Assembly: GCA_043756865.1 (NCBI GenBank)
Contig: JAYUQG010000019.1
Coordinates: 33,772 to 97,771, forward strand
DNA: 64,000 bases
Direction of reading: 5' to 3'
Source of the DNA: a bacterium
Lineage (GTDB): Bacteria; Patescibacteriota; Minisyncoccia; Phycocordibacterales; UBA6899
Positions 5,667-59,129 of this stretch are shown here, piece by piece. The notes beneath the pieces are model-generated. The model did not search any database, was not told the origin of the DNA, and was given only the letters and a program-made list of their open reading frames with translations. Numbering within the stretch: the first letter of the stretch is position 1; every line of letters starts with the position of its first letter. The translations under genes and the position numbers were made by a program.

Positions 5667-5733
5667 GTACAACCTTTTGACGTTCGGTCGGTTGTATTAC
5701 ATGCAGATAATTAAATAGTGCTTTATCCAGAGT

Positions 5734-6540
5734 GTGGCGAGAGACTGGCTCAACGACCCACCGGCAACCCTCAGTAATGAGAAGGTGCCAACCAGCCCCG
5801 AAAGGGGAAAGATAAACGTCGAAACTCTTTCCTTTGTACGGATGGAGTTTTTATTATTTAGGTTCAAAAACATGAGATCAACAACTATCAGTCGTGAAGC
5901 GTACCTTGGCAGTAAAGAGGAGAAGGAAATTTATGAATTAGAGGAAATAGACAGCAACAAGTATCGGCTACTCGGACGTGCCACAGGGATTAGCATGGAT
6001 CACTGCGTACTCATCGGATCAAATCACAAAAAAGAATTCTGGCACAGAGTGTATGGATTTCAGATTATACAAAATGAAAAAACAGAGAGAGCACTGCTTG
6101 AGGCGGCGCGGAAGATCAAGCCAGAGACCGAGTCGTATGTGACCGTGCAATTCTATGAACGGCTTTCAGAAGAAAAGTATATGTTTATACCCAAGCGCCT
6201 GGAAATTGCTGACCGTCCTGAGTTAAGCAACTTTCCACTTAATATATTGTTCGGCACGGCATGTCTCACTGACAACAACAGACAAATATTCGAAACGTCA
6301 GAATATGTCCCCGACCTCACCACCTTTACAGAGGAAGGTGATGAGCAGAAGTTGCGCTACTACAATTCACTCGATAACACGCGATGCCACTCTGCAGAGA
6401 TTGTGTATAACACAAAAGACCAATCGTATGTCGGTACGAAGTATCGCGGTGATAAACATGCCGGCATGGCTTTTGGTAATGCGTGGGATCCGTTCTTTGT
6501 GCATTTCACAATGCTGGGAGTAGGGGTTAACATTGATTAG
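5734..6540 (+). CDS. hypothetical protein (start uncertain)
   Basis: ORF-track start 5734 is GTG. In-frame ATGs lie at 5842 (MEFLLF) and 5872 (MRSTT; AGGT 11 nt upstream). No motif recognised. The 5' 100 nt are unusually GC-rich. Confidence 0.4.
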   Translation: MARDWLNDPPATLSNEKVPTSPERGKINVETLSFVRMEFLLFRFKNMRSTTISREAYLGSKEEKEIYELEEIDSNKYRLLGRATGISMDHCVLIGSNHKKEFWHRVYGFQIIQNEKTERALLEAARKIKPETESYVTVQFYERLSEEKYMFIPKRLEIADRPELSNFPLNILFGTACLTDNNRQIFETSEYVPDLTTFTEEGDEQKLRYYNSLDNTRCHSAEIVYNTKDQSYVGTKYRGDKHAGMAFGNAWDPFFVHFTMLGVGVNID

Positions 6541-40365: not shown

Positions 40366-40758
40366 CTATTGTGCGGCGTGAGTCAGCAGATAACCCTTGC
40401 TTGCGAGGAGCTGCAGGATATCGTCGAGAATATTTTTTGTGGAGAGCTCTTTTTCTGCAGTGCGGTAAATCGGACGCAAGTGCTCAATGAGTGACGAAAT
40501 GAGTGCTGCAATTTCACCATCCGTCACTGCTTCATTACTCTTCATAAGCGTGAGGTGTTGATCTGAAATGACCGAGAAGAATGTCCAAATTCTGCGCTCG
40601 CACTCTCGCTCTGCCAAGGTACCGTCACGTACAGCACATTTAAAACCAAAAAGCTTGCGTTCTGTTTCCGCAATAAGGGTTTCGGGCTTGTTAAGGTCAA
40701 CGGTAATTTGCCCCTTTTTTGCACCAACGGGTTTTACTCCTTTCGGTATTTCTTTCAC
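40366..40758 (-). CDS. hypothetical protein (130 aa)
   Basis: GTG start at 40758 (rc). No motif recognised. Confidence 0.35.
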   Translation of the reverse strand: MKEIPKGVKPVGAKKGQITVDLNKPETLIAETERKLFGFKCAVRDGTLAERECERRIWTFFSVISDQHLTLMKSNEAVTDGEIAALISSLIEHLRPIYRTAEKELSTKNILDDILQLLASKGYLLTHAAQ

Positions 40759-40794
40759 TCCGTAAGTATCTCACATTTATTTTTATGTGAAACG

Positions 40795-40990
40795 TCTACT
40801 GACCCTCCCGAATTAACTTAACAAGAACAAACATGATCACTTTTGTTTCCTGCGCAGTCATGGAGCGCAGAATGCCTTGAGACGTAATAGGATTACGGTG
40901 AAAAGGTATTTTGCGTGAAGGACAAGCAGGAGATAAAAGTGGCGTGTTTTTCGTTAAGGTAATTCGGGAAGGTCAGTAACTGTACACACG
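40795..40990. repeat. MITE-like palindromic element, copy 1 (~190 bp, long imperfect terminal inverted repeats)
   Basis: CTGACCCTCCCGAATTAAC...GTTAAGGTAATTCGGGAAGGTCAG. About 90% identical to copy 2 at 46461-46649. Contains internal hairpin CTGCGCAGTCATGGAGCGCAG. Confidence 0.7.
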
Positions 40991-41037
40991 TCCACTGTCC
41001 TCGTCGCGATGAGCGAGATGCGCTAGTATTCTACAAT

Positions 41038-42282
41038 ATGACGCTAACTGAGCTGAAGGCTGCAAAACTCCCAGATTTGCCGGGAATATATACATTTCTG
41101 GATAGTAAGAAGTCGATTCTCTATATCGGAAAAGCGACGTCACTCCAATCGCGAGTTCGGAGTTATTTTGCAAATGACCTGCTGCATACACGAGGAAAGC
41201 ATATCGTCGACATGGTGACGCTCTCTACGTATGTTGAGCACACAATTACTGACTCAGTGCTCGAAGCGCTCGTGCTCGAAGCAAGCCTCATAAAGCGCCA
41301 CCAACCCTACTACAACACAAAAGAGAAAGACGGAAAAAGCTGGAATTACGTTGTTTTTAGTAACGAGCTATTTCCAAGTATCACCACTATTCGTGAACGT
41401 ACCATGCTCACAGGAAAAGATGAGCAAGAACTGGGTTTTAAAAAGATATTCGGGCCATTCCCGAGCGGTGGAAACCTCGAGGAAGCACTACGTATCATTC
41501 GAAAGATATTTCCTTTTCGCGATACATGTACACCAAATGCGGGTAAACCATGCTTCAACCGCCAAATCGGGCTCTGCCCCGGAGTGTGTACTGGCGAAAT
41601 GAGCAAAGCCGAGTACGGCAAACGCGTTCGAGAAATTTCATTATTTCTCGGAGGAAAAAAAACCCGCCTCGAGACGCTGCTCACCAAAGAAATGCACGCA
41701 TGCGCAAAGAAGCTGCAGTTCGAAGAGGCGGGGGAATACAAGCGTATGCTTTTTGCACTCCGCCACATCAAAGATGCGTCGTTGATTAAAGAGGACATAC
41801 GGGAAGAATCGCGACGTAGCTCCCGCACACGCAGCAAGCCGTTTCGCATCGAAGCGTATGACATTGCGCACATTTCAGGCAAATACACCGTAGGAGTAAT
41901 GACCGTAGTTGAAGATGGCGTTCCGAATAAGTCCGAGTACCGTAAATTTAAAATTCGCATAAATCCCGACCGCCCCGATGACACACTCCATCTCGAGGAG
42001 ATACTTTCTCGTCGTCTGCGGCACTCCAATTGGCAATTTCCCGATATTATTGTGGTAGACGGCAGCACTGCCCAGAAACGACGTGCGGAACGCACTTTGG
42101 CGACGCTCAATCTCAGCATTCCCGTACTCGGTGTAGTAAAGGACAACAGACACAAGGCGAAAGCAATTATCGGCAACAAGGAACTCGCCGTCTCCTACAA
42201 ACGGGGCATACTCATAGCGAATCTCGAGTCCCACCGCTTTGCGGTCGAATACCATCGGTTACTCCGTGGACGCTTGGGATAA
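41038..42282 (+). CDS. uvrC: excinuclease ABC subunit C, short form lacking C-terminal (HhH)2 region
   Basis: GIY-YIG N-terminus (LPGIYTFLD..ILYIGKA). UVR domain (FEEAGEYKRMLFAL). Catalytic region RIEAYDIAHISG / DIIVVDGS / ESHRFAV. 414 aa. Confidence 0.75.
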   Translation: MTLTELKAAKLPDLPGIYTFLDSKKSILYIGKATSLQSRVRSYFANDLLHTRGKHIVDMVTLSTYVEHTITDSVLEALVLEASLIKRHQPYYNTKEKDGKSWNYVVFSNELFPSITTIRERTMLTGKDEQELGFKKIFGPFPSGGNLEEALRIIRKIFPFRDTCTPNAGKPCFNRQIGLCPGVCTGEMSKAEYGKRVREISLFLGGKKTRLETLLTKEMHACAKKLQFEEAGEYKRMLFALRHIKDASLIKEDIREESRRSSRTRSKPFRIEAYDIAHISGKYTVGVMTVVEDGVPNKSEYRKFKIRINPDRPDDTLHLEEILSRRLRHSNWQFPDIIVVDGSTAQKRRAERTLATLNLSIPVLGVVKDNRHKAKAIIGNKELAVSYKRGILIANLESHRFAVEYHRLLRGRLG

Positions 42283-43415: not shown

Positions 43416-43488
43416 GGGCCGTTAGCTCATCTGGTAGAGCACCGCATTTGCAATGCGGGGGTGGCAGGTTCGAGTCCTGTACGGTCCA
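43416..43488 (+). tRNA. tRNA-Ala (anticodon TGC)
   Basis: Cloverleaf by eye: acceptor GGGCCGT/ACGGTCC, D-arm GCTC..GAGC, anticodon arm CCGCA-TTTGCAA-TGCGG, T-arm GCAGG-TTCGAGT-CCTGT, discriminator A. No encoded CCA. Confidence 0.85.
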
Positions 43489-43496
43489 CAAGCGTC

Positions 43497-43523
43497 AAAA
43501 AACCTGCCCTTGGGCAGGTTTTT
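43497..43523 (+). terminator. rho-independent terminator after tRNA-Ala(UGC), nested in a longer inverted repeat
   Basis: aaaaaCCTGCCCttgGGCAGGttttt. The outer arms GTCCACAAGCG (43484-43494) and CGCTTGTGGAC (43524-43534) are also complementary. Confidence 0.6.
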
Positions 43524-43745
43524 CGCTTGTGGACCGTAGCAAGCTAACTGCTTGGCTTGCGTAAGGACTCGAAAGGCTTTGCGATGTTTATGAAGCATTC
43601 TGATGCTGAATAAACCGCAAAGGCATACAGTCCTCGTAGAGGAAGAGTCATGTGTAATTGCTTGTCGAGATTTCTTTGCAGCAAAAGCGTAGTAGATTTT
43701 TGTTGAGGCGCAAATATAAAACGCCCACCAGCGTCTTATTATTTG

Positions 43746-43818
43746 TGGACCATAGCGGACTCGAACCGCTCACCTCATCCATGCCATGGATGCGCTCTAC
43801 CAGATGAGCTAATGGCCC
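43746..43818 (-). tRNA. tRNA-Ala (anticodon GGC)
   Basis: rc reads GGGCCAT-TA-GCTC-ATCTGGT-AGAGC-G-CATCC-ATGGCAT-GGATG-AGGTG-AGCGG-TTCGAGT-CCGCT-ATGGTCC-A. It is convergent with the other tRNA-Ala. Confidence 0.8.
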
Positions 43819-44975: not shown

Positions 44976-46358
44976 ATGAGTAACATGAAACTACAGTATA
45001 CAAGCAAGATTGGTTGGCCGCTACTTATCCTGCTTTCTTTTATTCCACTGATTATCTGGATGTTCACGCCGTATTCGCTCGACCAACGCTTCATACGAGG
45101 TGGGCAATTCAATTATGGGCTCACAATGCAGGCGCTCGGACAAGCATTGGGGCTTGTGGGTATGGCAATGTTCGCACTCAATCTTGTTCTCGGAGCCAGA
45201 CTTGCATGGATCGAAGGCCTTTTTGGGGGAATGAATAAAGTGTATATAGCTCACCACATCTTGGGTGGACTTTCATTCATCCTTCTCCTTCTTCACCCAT
45301 TGTTCCTTGTCGCCCAATATATTACCGCCGGTGCTAAAGGTATGCAAAATGGTTTTATAACTTTTGTAGCGAATCCTCATTGTTATGCGAATTTCGGTGT
45401 AACAAACCCTGAGTGCTCATACTTATGGGGTGTTATTGCCCTTATTCTCATGATCCTTTTCTTAGTGATCACTTTTTTTGGAAAACTTCCGTATCACATT
45501 TGGAAACTCACTCATAAATTTCTTGGCGTCGCGTTTTTCTTTGGCGCTCTTCATGTGCTATTCATCCCAAGTGATGTGACGGCAGTTGCTGTCCTTAAGT
45601 ACTACATGTTTTTTCTTGTTGTGATCGGTTTTACGGGGATCTTTTACCGCACGATCCTCGGTTCAATACTTGTTCCACGTACCGAGTACGTTATCGACGA
45701 AATCAAACAGGTCAACCCGACTATTGTTGAAATTGTCATGCACCCCAAGAATGATAAAAAATGTATTACCTACAAACCGGGGCAGTTTATCTTTATCGGT
45801 TTTCCTGACGTAAGCGGACTCGGTGAGGTGCATCCGTTTTCCCTTTCTTCGCAACCCGAGGGAGTGTGCATCTCTATCGGCGTGAAGGGTCTGGGTGACT
45901 ACACGAAGCGACTGAATGAACTGAGGCCGGGGATGCGTGCCATTATCGAAGGTCCCTTCGGGCGCACATCGTACATTTACTATCCAAAGAAAGACCAAAT
46001 CTGGATTGCAGGTGGAATCGGGATCACTCCCTTTCTTGGCATGGCGCGCAGCCTGAAGCATGATGATGAATACAAAATTGACCTGTATTATTCTGCGATG
46101 TCTCTCGAAGATGCAGCATTTGATGCTGAACTCAACGCCCTTGCAGTAGGTAATCCGAATTTTAGGCTTATCCCTTGGTATGGAAAGGAAAAAGGATTCT
46201 TAAGTGCTGATGCTATCATCGCAGAGAGCCATGGTGTGCTCGGAAAAGAAATTTTCCTTTGTGGACCTCCCGGAATGATGAAGGCACTGAAGACTCAATT
46301 TGCAAAATGGAAAGTACCAGTCGCAAATATCCACTCCGAGGAATTCTCGATGAATTAA
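44976..46358 (+). CDS. NOX/ferric-reductase-like transmembrane flavocytochrome (heme TM domain + FAD/NAD-binding FNR-like domain)
   Basis: Paired His on TM helices (HHILGG...LLHP; HKFLG...LHVLF). HPFSLSS (FAD site). GGIGITPF (NAD site). CGPPGM. Confidence 0.75.
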   Translation: MSNMKLQYTSKIGWPLLILLSFIPLIIWMFTPYSLDQRFIRGGQFNYGLTMQALGQALGLVGMAMFALNLVLGARLAWIEGLFGGMNKVYIAHHILGGLSFILLLLHPLFLVAQYITAGAKGMQNGFITFVANPHCYANFGVTNPECSYLWGVIALILMILFLVITFFGKLPYHIWKLTHKFLGVAFFFGALHVLFIPSDVTAVAVLKYYMFFLVVIGFTGIFYRTILGSILVPRTEYVIDEIKQVNPTIVEIVMHPKNDKKCITYKPGQFIFIGFPDVSGLGEVHPFSLSSQPEGVCISIGVKGLGDYTKRLNELRPGMRAIIEGPFGRTSYIYYPKKDQIWIAGGIGITPFLGMARSLKHDDEYKIDLYYSAMSLEDAAFDAELNALAVGNPNFRLIPWYGKEKGFLSADAIIAESHGVLGKEIFLCGPPGMMKALKTQFAKWKVPVANIHSEEFSMN

Positions 46359-46369
46359 TTTTATATCGT

Positions 46370-46459
46370 ATGTGGCTTAAAAAATTCGTAGCAGTTACAC
46401 TCGTCATTTTCGCAATAACACTCACCGTGTTTATTATGATTGGCCTTGTGGGTGTATAG
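46370..46459 (+). CDS. 29-aa hydrophobic micro-ORF (single TM) immediately after the NOX-like gene
   Basis: ATG 11 nt after the NOX stop. Peptide MWLKKFVAVTLVIFAITLTVFIMIGLVGV. It ends exactly at the MITE copy 2 boundary. Confidence 0.25.
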   Translation: MWLKKFVAVTLVIFAITLTVFIMIGLVGV

Positions 46460-46460
46460 C

Positions 46461-46649
46461 TCTACTGACCTTCTCGAATTAACAAGAACAGACACGATCA
46501 CTTTTGTTTCCTGCGCAGTCATGGAGCGCAAAACACCTTTAGGCGTAATTAATTACAGTGAAAAGGTATTTTGAGTGAAGGACAAGCAGGAGATAAAAGT
46601 GGCGTGTTTTTCGTTAAGGTAATTAGGAGAGGTCAGTAAGTACGCAACG
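46461..46649. repeat. MITE-like palindromic element, copy 2
   Basis: CTGACCTTCTCGAATTAAC...GTTAAGGTAATTAGGAGAGGTCAG. It sits between convergent genes. Confidence 0.7.
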
Positions 46650-46977
46650 TGTGGTACTTTGCTTTTTCCCACGCAATCATTCCACCAAGGACATTTACCG
46701 CATTGTGGTAGTCATGGTCAGCAAGTGTGTCGCACGCAGTTTCACTGCGGCCACCACTGCGACAAATAAAGTAAATTCTCGATGCACGTTTGAGCTCGGG
46801 GATATGCGCTTCGATTGAGGAAAGTGGTATGTGTGTAAATCCCGCGATATGACCCTCATCCCATTCTTCATGTGTACGCACATCCACAAAGAGCGCACCA
46901 TCTGGATGAGCAAGTGCCAGTTTAACCCCCTCAACCGAGATTGCGTTACGACCAGTGTTCTTTAACTTATCTAACAT
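46633..46977 (-). CDS. rhodanese-domain sulfurtransferase
   Basis: Active-site loop CRSGGRS. 114 aa single rhodanese domain. Confidence 0.75.
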   Translation of the reverse strand: MLDKLKNTGRNAISVEGVKLALAHPDGALFVDVRTHEEWDEGHIAGFTHIPLSSIEAHIPELKRASRIYFICRSGGRSETACDTLADHDYHNAVNVLGGMIAWEKAKYHTLRTY

Positions 46978-57093: not shown

Positions 57094-58791
57094 TCAGTCG
57101 GCTGACATCAGCCTTTTTGACGAGTGGCGAACGAGTGCCGCCTTTTCGTGTCTCGAGAGTTTTTTCAAACCTCCATCACCGTCGAAACACTTGAGGCAGA
57201 TTCGGTTCTTGCCGAGCCGTTCAATGGTGTTGAGCGACGGGTGGTCGACCATGGTTACCTCGTCCCCACAATGCAGGACGATTGCCTTTACGTCACTAGG
57301 CGCATAGATGTAGTGCGCATTCAGGAACACAACCGGACCAGAAAGATGGATGTGGTAGTTTCCATCAATCATCTTGGAACTTGCAACCGGATTTCTGAAG
57401 AGGCTCCGGAAAACAAAGAACGGCGATGCGTTCGGCTGATGCGTCTTATGTGCCGCCCACAGTGCAATCGCATACACGATCATGAATTCCATGGCCATGG
57501 CGGCTGCCATCCCCCAAAGAATTTCACGGCTATACGCAGCAACACCAACACCGGTTGCAAAGACGGCAAACTGGCCGAGGCCAATATGCGCAAAGTGCAA
57601 CCAAACGCGCGGAGCGCACATCGCGCCTGCCGTAATGGCGATAACCGCAGAAAGTCCGGAGAGCGGAAGGTGGTTAATTACCTCACGTGTAGTTGCAAAG
57701 TAGACAGAGATGAAGATGAACAGGCCGCAGAACGCACCCGACCACAGTGTCTTCGCACCGAGGCTGATATTGAGGGAACTCTTGAGTCCGCCCCAGATGT
57801 GCGTCAGCGCTCCAAAGAAGGAGCCGATGAAGTTTGCGGTGCCCATCGCCTTGAGCGTCAGATTGGGATCCGACGTGCGCTTGTAGTGATCCTTCGCATC
57901 GATACCTTTTGCTGTCGCTGTTGACTCAATCGCATCTACCAAAGTCAGAATCACGACTGCCCACAAAAAGTCCTTCCAGATACTTGGGTCCATCCAGACG
58001 CCAGCAAAGTTTGGAATAACCACTCCTGATGCAAATGGGTCTGCGGGCAAGTGAATGCGGAACTCTGGAGGAAGTAGGAACCAGTAGGAGAGGCCGAGCG
58101 CGAACACCGCCGCTAAGACCTGCGCAGGTATGTAGCGCAAGAATGGCAGTCTCTTGCGCAAGAGGAGAAGCGTCGCCAAGAAAACAAGCGTCGATGCTCC
58201 AATAACAAACACACTCTGGTTTATTTGCGGAATACGCGCAGGAATTTCCGTAAGAATTCCCCACACATCTTGCGACTGAAACTTCACCCCAAAGAACACG
58301 GGGATTTGTTTGACTAGAAGCGAAATGCCGATCCATGCAAACATGCTTTCTACTACCGCATCCGAAAACAACGCGGCGAATCGTGCGAGCTTGAGTTTGC
58401 CAATGATAAACATCAGCACACCCGTGCACATTACGACCGGAAGAAAGAGTGAGTACCCGAGCACTTGGTCACCGTGCCCCAGCTTGTCGATGGTATCGGC
58501 AATAATCGGAGCGAGCGCAGCGGCCGCTCCAGCCACACCAAGGTACGAGCCGCCCATAAACGGGAACAGCACGCACGCAATGATTGCCGAGATGATGCCG
58601 CTCATGGGCGGTGCATGCGAAATCGACGATATCGCGAGGGCAAATATGAGTGCCACGGGGAAAAGCGCAAACCCCGCCGGTAGGTCATAGCGAAGGAATC
58701 GCAGACCTTGTAGTCCATTTTGTGGTACTACATCGGGTGCGGGGTTAAAAAACTCTCGCAACCGATTCCAGACACTTTGGATGTTTGTCAT
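57094..58791 (-). CDS. SulP/SLC26 family anion transporter with C-terminal STAS-like domain
   Basis: DLPAGFALFPVALIFALAISSISHAPPMSGIISAII and ANFIGSFFGAL..GLKSSLNISLGAKT match the SulP signature regions. Confidence 0.75.
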   Translation of the reverse strand: MTNIQSVWNRLREFFNPAPDVVPQNGLQGLRFLRYDLPAGFALFPVALIFALAISSISHAPPMSGIISAIIACVLFPFMGGSYLGVAGAAAALAPIIADTIDKLGHGDQVLGYSLFLPVVMCTGVLMFIIGKLKLARFAALFSDAVVESMFAWIGISLLVKQIPVFFGVKFQSQDVWGILTEIPARIPQINQSVFVIGASTLVFLATLLLLRKRLPFLRYIPAQVLAAVFALGLSYWFLLPPEFRIHLPADPFASGVVIPNFAGVWMDPSIWKDFLWAVVILTLVDAIESTATAKGIDAKDHYKRTSDPNLTLKAMGTANFIGSFFGALTHIWGGLKSSLNISLGAKTLWSGAFCGLFIFISVYFATTREVINHLPLSGLSAVIAITAGAMCAPRVWLHFAHIGLGQFAVFATGVGVAAYSREILWGMAAAMAMEFMIVYAIALWAAHKTHQPNASPFFVFRSLFRNPVASSKMIDGNYHIHLSGPVVFLNAHYIYAPSDVKAIVLHCGDEVTMVDHPSLNTIERLGKNRICLKCFDGDGGLKKLSRHEKAALVRHSSKRLMSAD

Positions 58792-59129
58792 TTTTACTCC
58801 GTTCTATTCAGTTTTCAAGGTACGATTTGTCGAACACAGCAAGCACACCATAGGCCACATATGTCCGGAGGAGAAATCTAGGGTGGATTGAAGTCTTCAA
58901 GATGAAACTTCAATGCACGATACATCACTCCTCTGGGCACGCGAAGCCAAATATTTTCCTATTAAGGAAGAGGTCATTATTATCTTTTTTAAGATACAGT
59001 CAAGCTGATTTATGCACTTTATTATTCTATCATAATATTTAGTAAATGTCAATAATTTACCGCCAAGGGTAAGTTATTCTTCAAATACACTTTCATTTCC
59101 TTAACAAACGTGTTACGTTAGAGCCACTT

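Follow-up and report, generated by a model that had tools for sequence, protein, structure and literature searches.

The 64,000-nt stretch of DNA analysed here (the window), from a genome of the Patescibacteria, carries a palindromic sequence of about 175 nt at two places, and the question that it raises is what kind of element this is and how it came to occupy both sites. [quoted passage not shown] With a probability of roughly 0.8, the element is a non-coding, non-autonomous MITE that was moved in trans, probably by a transposase of the IS630/Tc1-mariner type. The MITE reading is supported by the inverted termini, the TA on both sides, the sites that are empty in relatives, the stop codon and the spacer length that are restored when the element is removed, and the lack of any conserved coding, and this evidence selects it over the REP-like option as well.

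By blastn, copy A (40795-40979) matches copy B (46461-46639) on the same strand with 88% identity over 185 columns (E = 1e-63), and lowering the word size to 7 nt brings up no further significant match in the 64-kb window. The two-copy repeat had been described at first pass as about 90% identical and as reaching 40990 and 46649; the repeat itself is confirmed, but its right ends had been placed about 10 nt too far. In a global alignment from TA to TA, 160 of the 182 columns are identical, the remainder being 16 substitutions and 6 gap columns, five of which make up one left-arm deletion in copy B. The identical runs reach 35 and 50 nt, and conservation within the element is highest in mid-stem. 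Read base by base, each copy consists of a core that runs from CTGACC to GGTCAG and is bordered by TA on either side, with the following features in the window:

40799..40976, + strand: core of copy A, 178 nt, CTGACC...GGTCAG
40797..40798, no strand: left TA of copy A, putative target-site duplication
40977..40978, no strand: right TA of copy A, putative target-site duplication
40797..40827, + strand: left terminal inverted repeat of copy A (31-nt arms, 87% complementary)
40948..40978, - strand: right terminal inverted repeat of copy A (31-nt arms, 87% complementary)
46465..46636, + strand: core of copy B, 172 nt, with a 5-nt left-arm deletion relative to copy A
46463..46464, no strand: left TA of copy B, which before insertion belonged to the rhodanese stop TAG (read as CTA in + orientation)
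46637..46638, no strand: right TA of copy B
46633..46635, - strand: present rhodanese TGA stop, from the right terminus of copy B (...ACT TAC TGA)

On the + strand, each copy folds into one full-length hairpin, at -98.1 kcal/mol and with 74 pairs in copy A (z = -14.2, none of 200 shuffles being as good) and at -73.0 kcal/mol in copy B (z = -8.75 against shuffles), in agreement with the palindromic structure that had been noticed before folding. The arms, then put at about 55 nt, are in fact about 85-90 nt long and form inverted repeats almost from end to end, and the 'internal perfect hairpin' CTGCG...CGCAG does not hold up, since it has only 5 bp, is imperfect in copy B (CGCAA) and is absent from the minimum-energy fold. 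The element termini are of the type TACTGACC..., with the terminus sequence TACTGACCYTCCCGAATTA, and a scan of the 64-kb window for the 19-nt terminus TACTGACCYTCYCGAATTA, allowing up to three mismatches, returned four occurrences, which are the four element ends, where 0.03 would be expected by chance; no extra terminus beyond these four was found in the window.

Homologues of UvrC and ferric reductase assign the window to a Candidatus Lloydbacteria-like member of the Parcubacteria, in the candidate phyla radiation, and the history of the two sites was read from related Lloydbacteria-like genomes with protein identities of 76-84%. Copy A lies between divergent genes, one for a hypothetical protein (40366-40758, - strand) and one for a UvrC-like protein (41038-42282, + strand). 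In the relatives L029 and L030, whose UvrC proteins are 84% and 81% identical, the order UvrA, hypothetical gene, UvrC and Ddl is kept and the element is absent. The spacer between the divergent genes measures 279 nt in the window versus about 117 nt in L029 (with the UvrC start as read by us) and 99 nt in L030, and taking out the core and one TA leaves a spacer of 99 nt, the very length seen in L030. The flanks then align (...CGTC-TA-ACTGTAC... in the window, ...GCTC-ACTGTGC... in L030), and the gene-proximal conserved blocks (TAAGTATCTCA on one side and CTCGTCGC followed by TAnTAT on the other) lie outside the insertion and are intact. Copy A was inserted midway along a divergent promoter spacer of 99 nt, where the relatives are too diverged for the ancestral dinucleotide to be read from them.

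Two further features of this locus were observed in passing. In the alignment with L029 and L030, conserved -10-like boxes were spotted by eye at a distance of only about 7 nt from the uvrC start codon (TAGTAT, 41025-41040) and from that of the divergent hypothetical gene (GATACT on the - strand, 40758-40775), and this spacing suggests leaderless mRNAs, or mRNAs with a very short leader, for both genes. Moreover, the UvrC of the window has a length of only about 414 aa, with GIY-YIG, UvrC_M and RNaseH-like domains, as do its homologues from more than 100 Parcubacteria relatives, while the classical UvrC is longer, at roughly 600 aa.

Copy B lies between a small ORF on the + strand and a rhodanese gene (46633-46977, - strand). 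The small ORF (about 46372-46460) directly follows a ferric-reductase-like gene (44976-46358, + strand) and encodes a hydrophobic peptide of 29 aa, MWLKKFVAVTLVIFAITLTVFIMIGLVGV; it is conserved in relatives, as MWLKNSVRITLIIFTISLVGFLLIYLFNF in L031 and as a called gene of 29 aa in L035, and probably represents a real small membrane protein, judging from this conservation. The order ferric reductase, small ORF and rhodanese is kept in L031/L032, L035 and L036, where the ferric reductases are 79%, 77% and 76% identical, respectively. The stop codons of the small ORF and the rhodanese gene are 1 nt apart in L031 and overlap in L035, and no element-sized insertion is present between the two genes in L036. 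In the window, the rhodanese frame ends ...CGT ACT TAC TGA, with the TGA inside the element, whereas taking out the core and one TA gives ...CGT ACT TAG, 2 nt from the stop of the small ORF, and the reconstructed C-terminus ...LRT* resembles ...VVR* of L035. Since removal restores the rhodanese TAG, copy B entered the TA of that stop codon, and its terminus provided the new stop together with one additional tyrosine.

Both copies are insertions at TA that took place in the lineage of this genome, with TA now on both sides, and the reconstructed empty sites read ..ACGTCTAACTGTAC.. and ..TAGCTCTAAGTACG.. The 9% substitutions between copies A and B, together with the decay of copy B, suggest that the insertions are old. 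Same-species Logan contigs, assembled from three or four sequencing runs, invariably break within both copies (at 40835, 40949, 46521 and 46595), so both sites are filled in all of those runs. In our reading, these breaks are explained by the 35- and 50-nt runs that the two copies share and, because such runs suffice to break an assembly, the breaks are no proof of further copies.

The two known copies lie 5.66 kb apart in direct orientation, an arrangement that would also be produced by a local, non-transpositional duplication, in which ectopic recombination or repair placed a second copy of a hairpin-forming spacer at a distance of 5.7 kb. However, sites A and B are both empty in relatives, so neither copy occupies an ancestral position; the boundaries of the two copies coincide to the base, fall on the tips of the palindrome and are each bordered by TA, with at most 3 nt of shared flank beyond them; and a stop codon interrupted with a clean 2-nt footprint is what transposition typically leaves. 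Such a duplication is therefore very improbable. The first-pass annotation had named a genome-wide total of two copies, together with a lack of target-site duplications, as the mark of a local duplication; on the second point, the TA flanks on both copies and the empty sites in the relatives speak against a plain one. A composite transposon made of the two copies and the intervening 5.7 kb was also considered and rejected, since the genes stand in the same order in the relatives, which lack the repeat.

Insertion by transposition raises the matter of the enzyme. Bacterial MITEs are shorter than 200 bp and have terminal inverted repeats, terminal TA and target duplications (PMC2229807), and IS630-family elements insert into TA, which is duplicated in the process, an inverted terminus of about 24-30 bp being enough for transposition of the IS630/Tc1-mariner family in vitro (PMC2170065). 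The element agrees with the general description of a bacterial MITE in its cores of 178 and 172 nt without coding capacity, its terminal inverted repeats, its TA flanks and its filled versus empty sites, and with that of an IS630/Tc1-mariner-derived MITE in its insertion into TA with a 2-bp TA duplication. From this choice and doubling of the target, taken together with the terminal inverted repeats, we propose a DDE enzyme of the IS630/Tc1-mariner type. In the sequence, a duplicated TA looks the same as a TA that belongs to the inverted terminus beside a single target TA; the IS630-type assignment, which is drawn solely from this TA signature, is probable, and so is mobilisation in trans. A transposase encoded elsewhere would bind the termini, about 20-30 nt in length, and then cut and paste the element. 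Copies that are transcribed would form long hairpins; if adjacent genes were affected, this would be incidental and would not explain why the element exists. No transposase had been seen in the window at first pass, and this was upheld by domain searches: 55 of the 60 window ORFs of at least 70 aa contain no transposase domain (DDE, Y1_Tnp or other), and the remaining five were identified by other means as UvrA, UvrC, Ddl, ferric reductase and a UvrD-like protein.

Mobilisation as single-stranded DNA by an HUH/Y1 enzyme has to be weighed at this point, either as a REPIN moved by a RAYT or as an IS200/IS605-type palindromic element placed 3' of a short target (e.g., TCTA), without target duplication. 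The whole unit is one hairpin, which is the form taken by REPINs, and the element resembles these RAYT-mobilised REP doublets in being non-coding, in folding as one long imperfect hairpin and in lying between genes. In addition, TC precedes the left TA and A follows the right TA in both copies, so the left flank TCTA fits a target motif; these shared flanks, seen at n = 2 sites, may reflect a target preference. The equivalence of duplicated and terminal TA in the sequence suits this alternative too. Nevertheless, the termini are true inverted repeats and the TA flanks are symmetric, whereas the ends of IS200/IS605 elements are not inverted repeats of each other. REPINs are usually shorter, consist of two short REP palindromes, lack TA flanks or a TA duplication and are accompanied by a RAYT gene. 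Here the unit is about 175 nt long, an informal look at the arms revealed no pair of short REP-like palindromes, and neither a Y1/RAYT domain nor a RAYT gene was seen among the ORFs of the window. Transfer by a single-strand mechanism is accordingly unlikely, and transposition of a MITE by a DDE enzyme is the reading retained.

No reading frame is conserved between copies A and B. Their short ORFs differ, and a small peptide gene was rejected for this reason. The - strand of copy A is open over the whole element (40799-40972, 58 codons), bounded by the stops TGA and TAG that the termini themselves make, but indels in copy B break this frame; it is probably due to chance, the odds of one open frame among six being estimated at about 0.3.

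The structured-RNA option would make the element a functional RNA that was duplicated by chance and whose + strand transcript is under selection; it could act, for example, as an sRNA in the form of a long double-stranded hairpin, or in cis by stabilisation or termination. The + strand does fold much better than the - strand, for which the values are -73.7 kcal/mol in copy A and -56.8 kcal/mol in copy B; both copies are oriented like the adjacent + strand genes; and conservation peaks in the middle of the stem, where the identical 35- and 50-nt runs are found. The stronger + strand fold follows from an excess of G-U over A-C among the arm mismatches of that strand, which amounts to just 6 versus 2 in copy A and 5 versus 2 in copy B and is not significant (p of about 0.3 by our binomial estimate). 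Furthermore, the stem changes between copies A and B comprise 0 compensatory pairs, 6 one-sided changes that keep the pair, 5 broken pairs and 4 gapped pairs, and with no covariation between the copies and a non-significant G-U bias, selection on RNA structure was rejected. Searched with the covariance models of Rfam 15, which include 6S RNA, neither copy gave a match at the gathering score or even at E <= 1, and 6S RNA or another known RNA was rejected on this ground. Consensus scans returned no promoter-like site, no intrinsic terminator and no terminator-like T tract in or beside the element, and its absence from the relatives at both sites means that it is no conserved gene or regulator of these loci. 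A functional RNA is therefore quite unlikely, and the structured-RNA option of the first-pass annotation is not sustained.

A more elaborate version, in which the MITE was exapted as a hairpin RNA module, is unlikely. Transcribed from the + strand, the element would then provide about 75 bp of nearly perfect dsRNA that is processed, for instance by RNase III, or that insulates or stabilises flanking transcripts. Its MITE family would at the same time be specific to the clade and still active, and the streamlined genomes of Patescibacteria would contain an IS630-like partner for it. If this were true, the G-U bias of the + strand and the conserved middle of the stem would reflect selection.

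Further copies of the MITE, or an autonomous partner element, were sought in several collections. Among species-representative genomes, a 19-mer of the right arm gave 11 matches, all of just 19-21 nt and in unrelated taxa, and among metagenome contigs, a 20-mer of the left arm gave 16 matches, each of just 20-23 nt. Viral contigs yielded 0 matches to four patterns, including a degenerate terminus, and plasmids and phages yielded no match by blastn in distant mode. Six-frame translations of both copies, compared with 5.8 billion proteins as a test for mis-called genes, retrieved nothing at E <= 1, and in the window and the contigs fetched from relatives, sensitive blastn found copies A and B alone. 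No autonomous partner element was found in any of these collections. Because the scans need exact words and the collections are without the source genome, these negatives say little about the copy number in the host.

Among known systems, one of the closest in description is RUP of Streptococcus pneumoniae, an IS630-Spn1-dependent MITE that is likewise short and non-coding, has terminal inverted repeats, inserts into TA and forms a hairpin, and that is mobilised in trans (PMC2229807). RUP differs in its 107 bp, in its approximately 108 copies and in termini that match a known IS630-family element, whereas the element described here has 172-178 nt and was seen in two copies; the comparison is one of descriptions, with no sign of relatedness in sequence. 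Correia/NEMIS elements of Neisseria and ERIC elements of enterobacteria are also MITEs of less than 200 bp with terminal TA and target duplications, mostly intergenic and forming long hairpins when transcribed (PMC2229807), and they can alter neighbouring transcripts via RNase III or RNase E (PMC10969869). However, they are confined to their own taxa, reach hundreds of copies and have documented effects on expression, and the present element belongs to a bacterium of the candidate phyla radiation. Autonomous insertion sequences of the IS630/Tc1-mariner family, such as ISY100, share the insertion into TA with TA duplication (PMC2170065) but are about 1 kb long and encode a DDE transposase, while the element here encodes nothing.

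The element represents a new family within a well-known class, a real but ordinary small transposon relic, which opens no new mechanism and answers no long-standing question. Genomes of the candidate phyla radiation are small, no papers describing MITEs in these bacteria were found in the literature searched, and clean pairs of filled and empty sites constitute a small, concrete data point on transposon activity there. Two practical consequences can be pointed out: the repeat breaks short-read assemblies at both copies, and copy B rewrote the end of a gene via a new stop codon.

Other structured features were observed elsewhere in the window. A SAM riboswitch (S-box) aptamer is located at 5720-5818 on the + strand, with 64.1 bits versus a gathering score of 44.4; it coincides with the beginning of the listed ORF 5734-6540, whose real start must lie further downstream. 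Two tRNA-Ala genes face each other, TGC at 43416-43489 on the + strand and GGC at 43745-43818 on the - strand, forming a 76-nt inverted repeat that is 76% complementary, with 251 nt between its arms, and Logan contigs of the same organism also break at this pair (43444 and 43773). At 43480-43538, a 20-nt inverted repeat, 90% complementary and with a 19-nt spacer, reuses the 3' end of tRNA-Ala(TGC) as its left arm (TACGGTCCA...) and may be a processing or terminator hairpin. Finally, just upstream of a sulfate-permease-family gene (57094-58791, - strand), a 33-nt inverted repeat at 58862-58939, 76% complementary and with a 12-nt loop, may be a leader structure.
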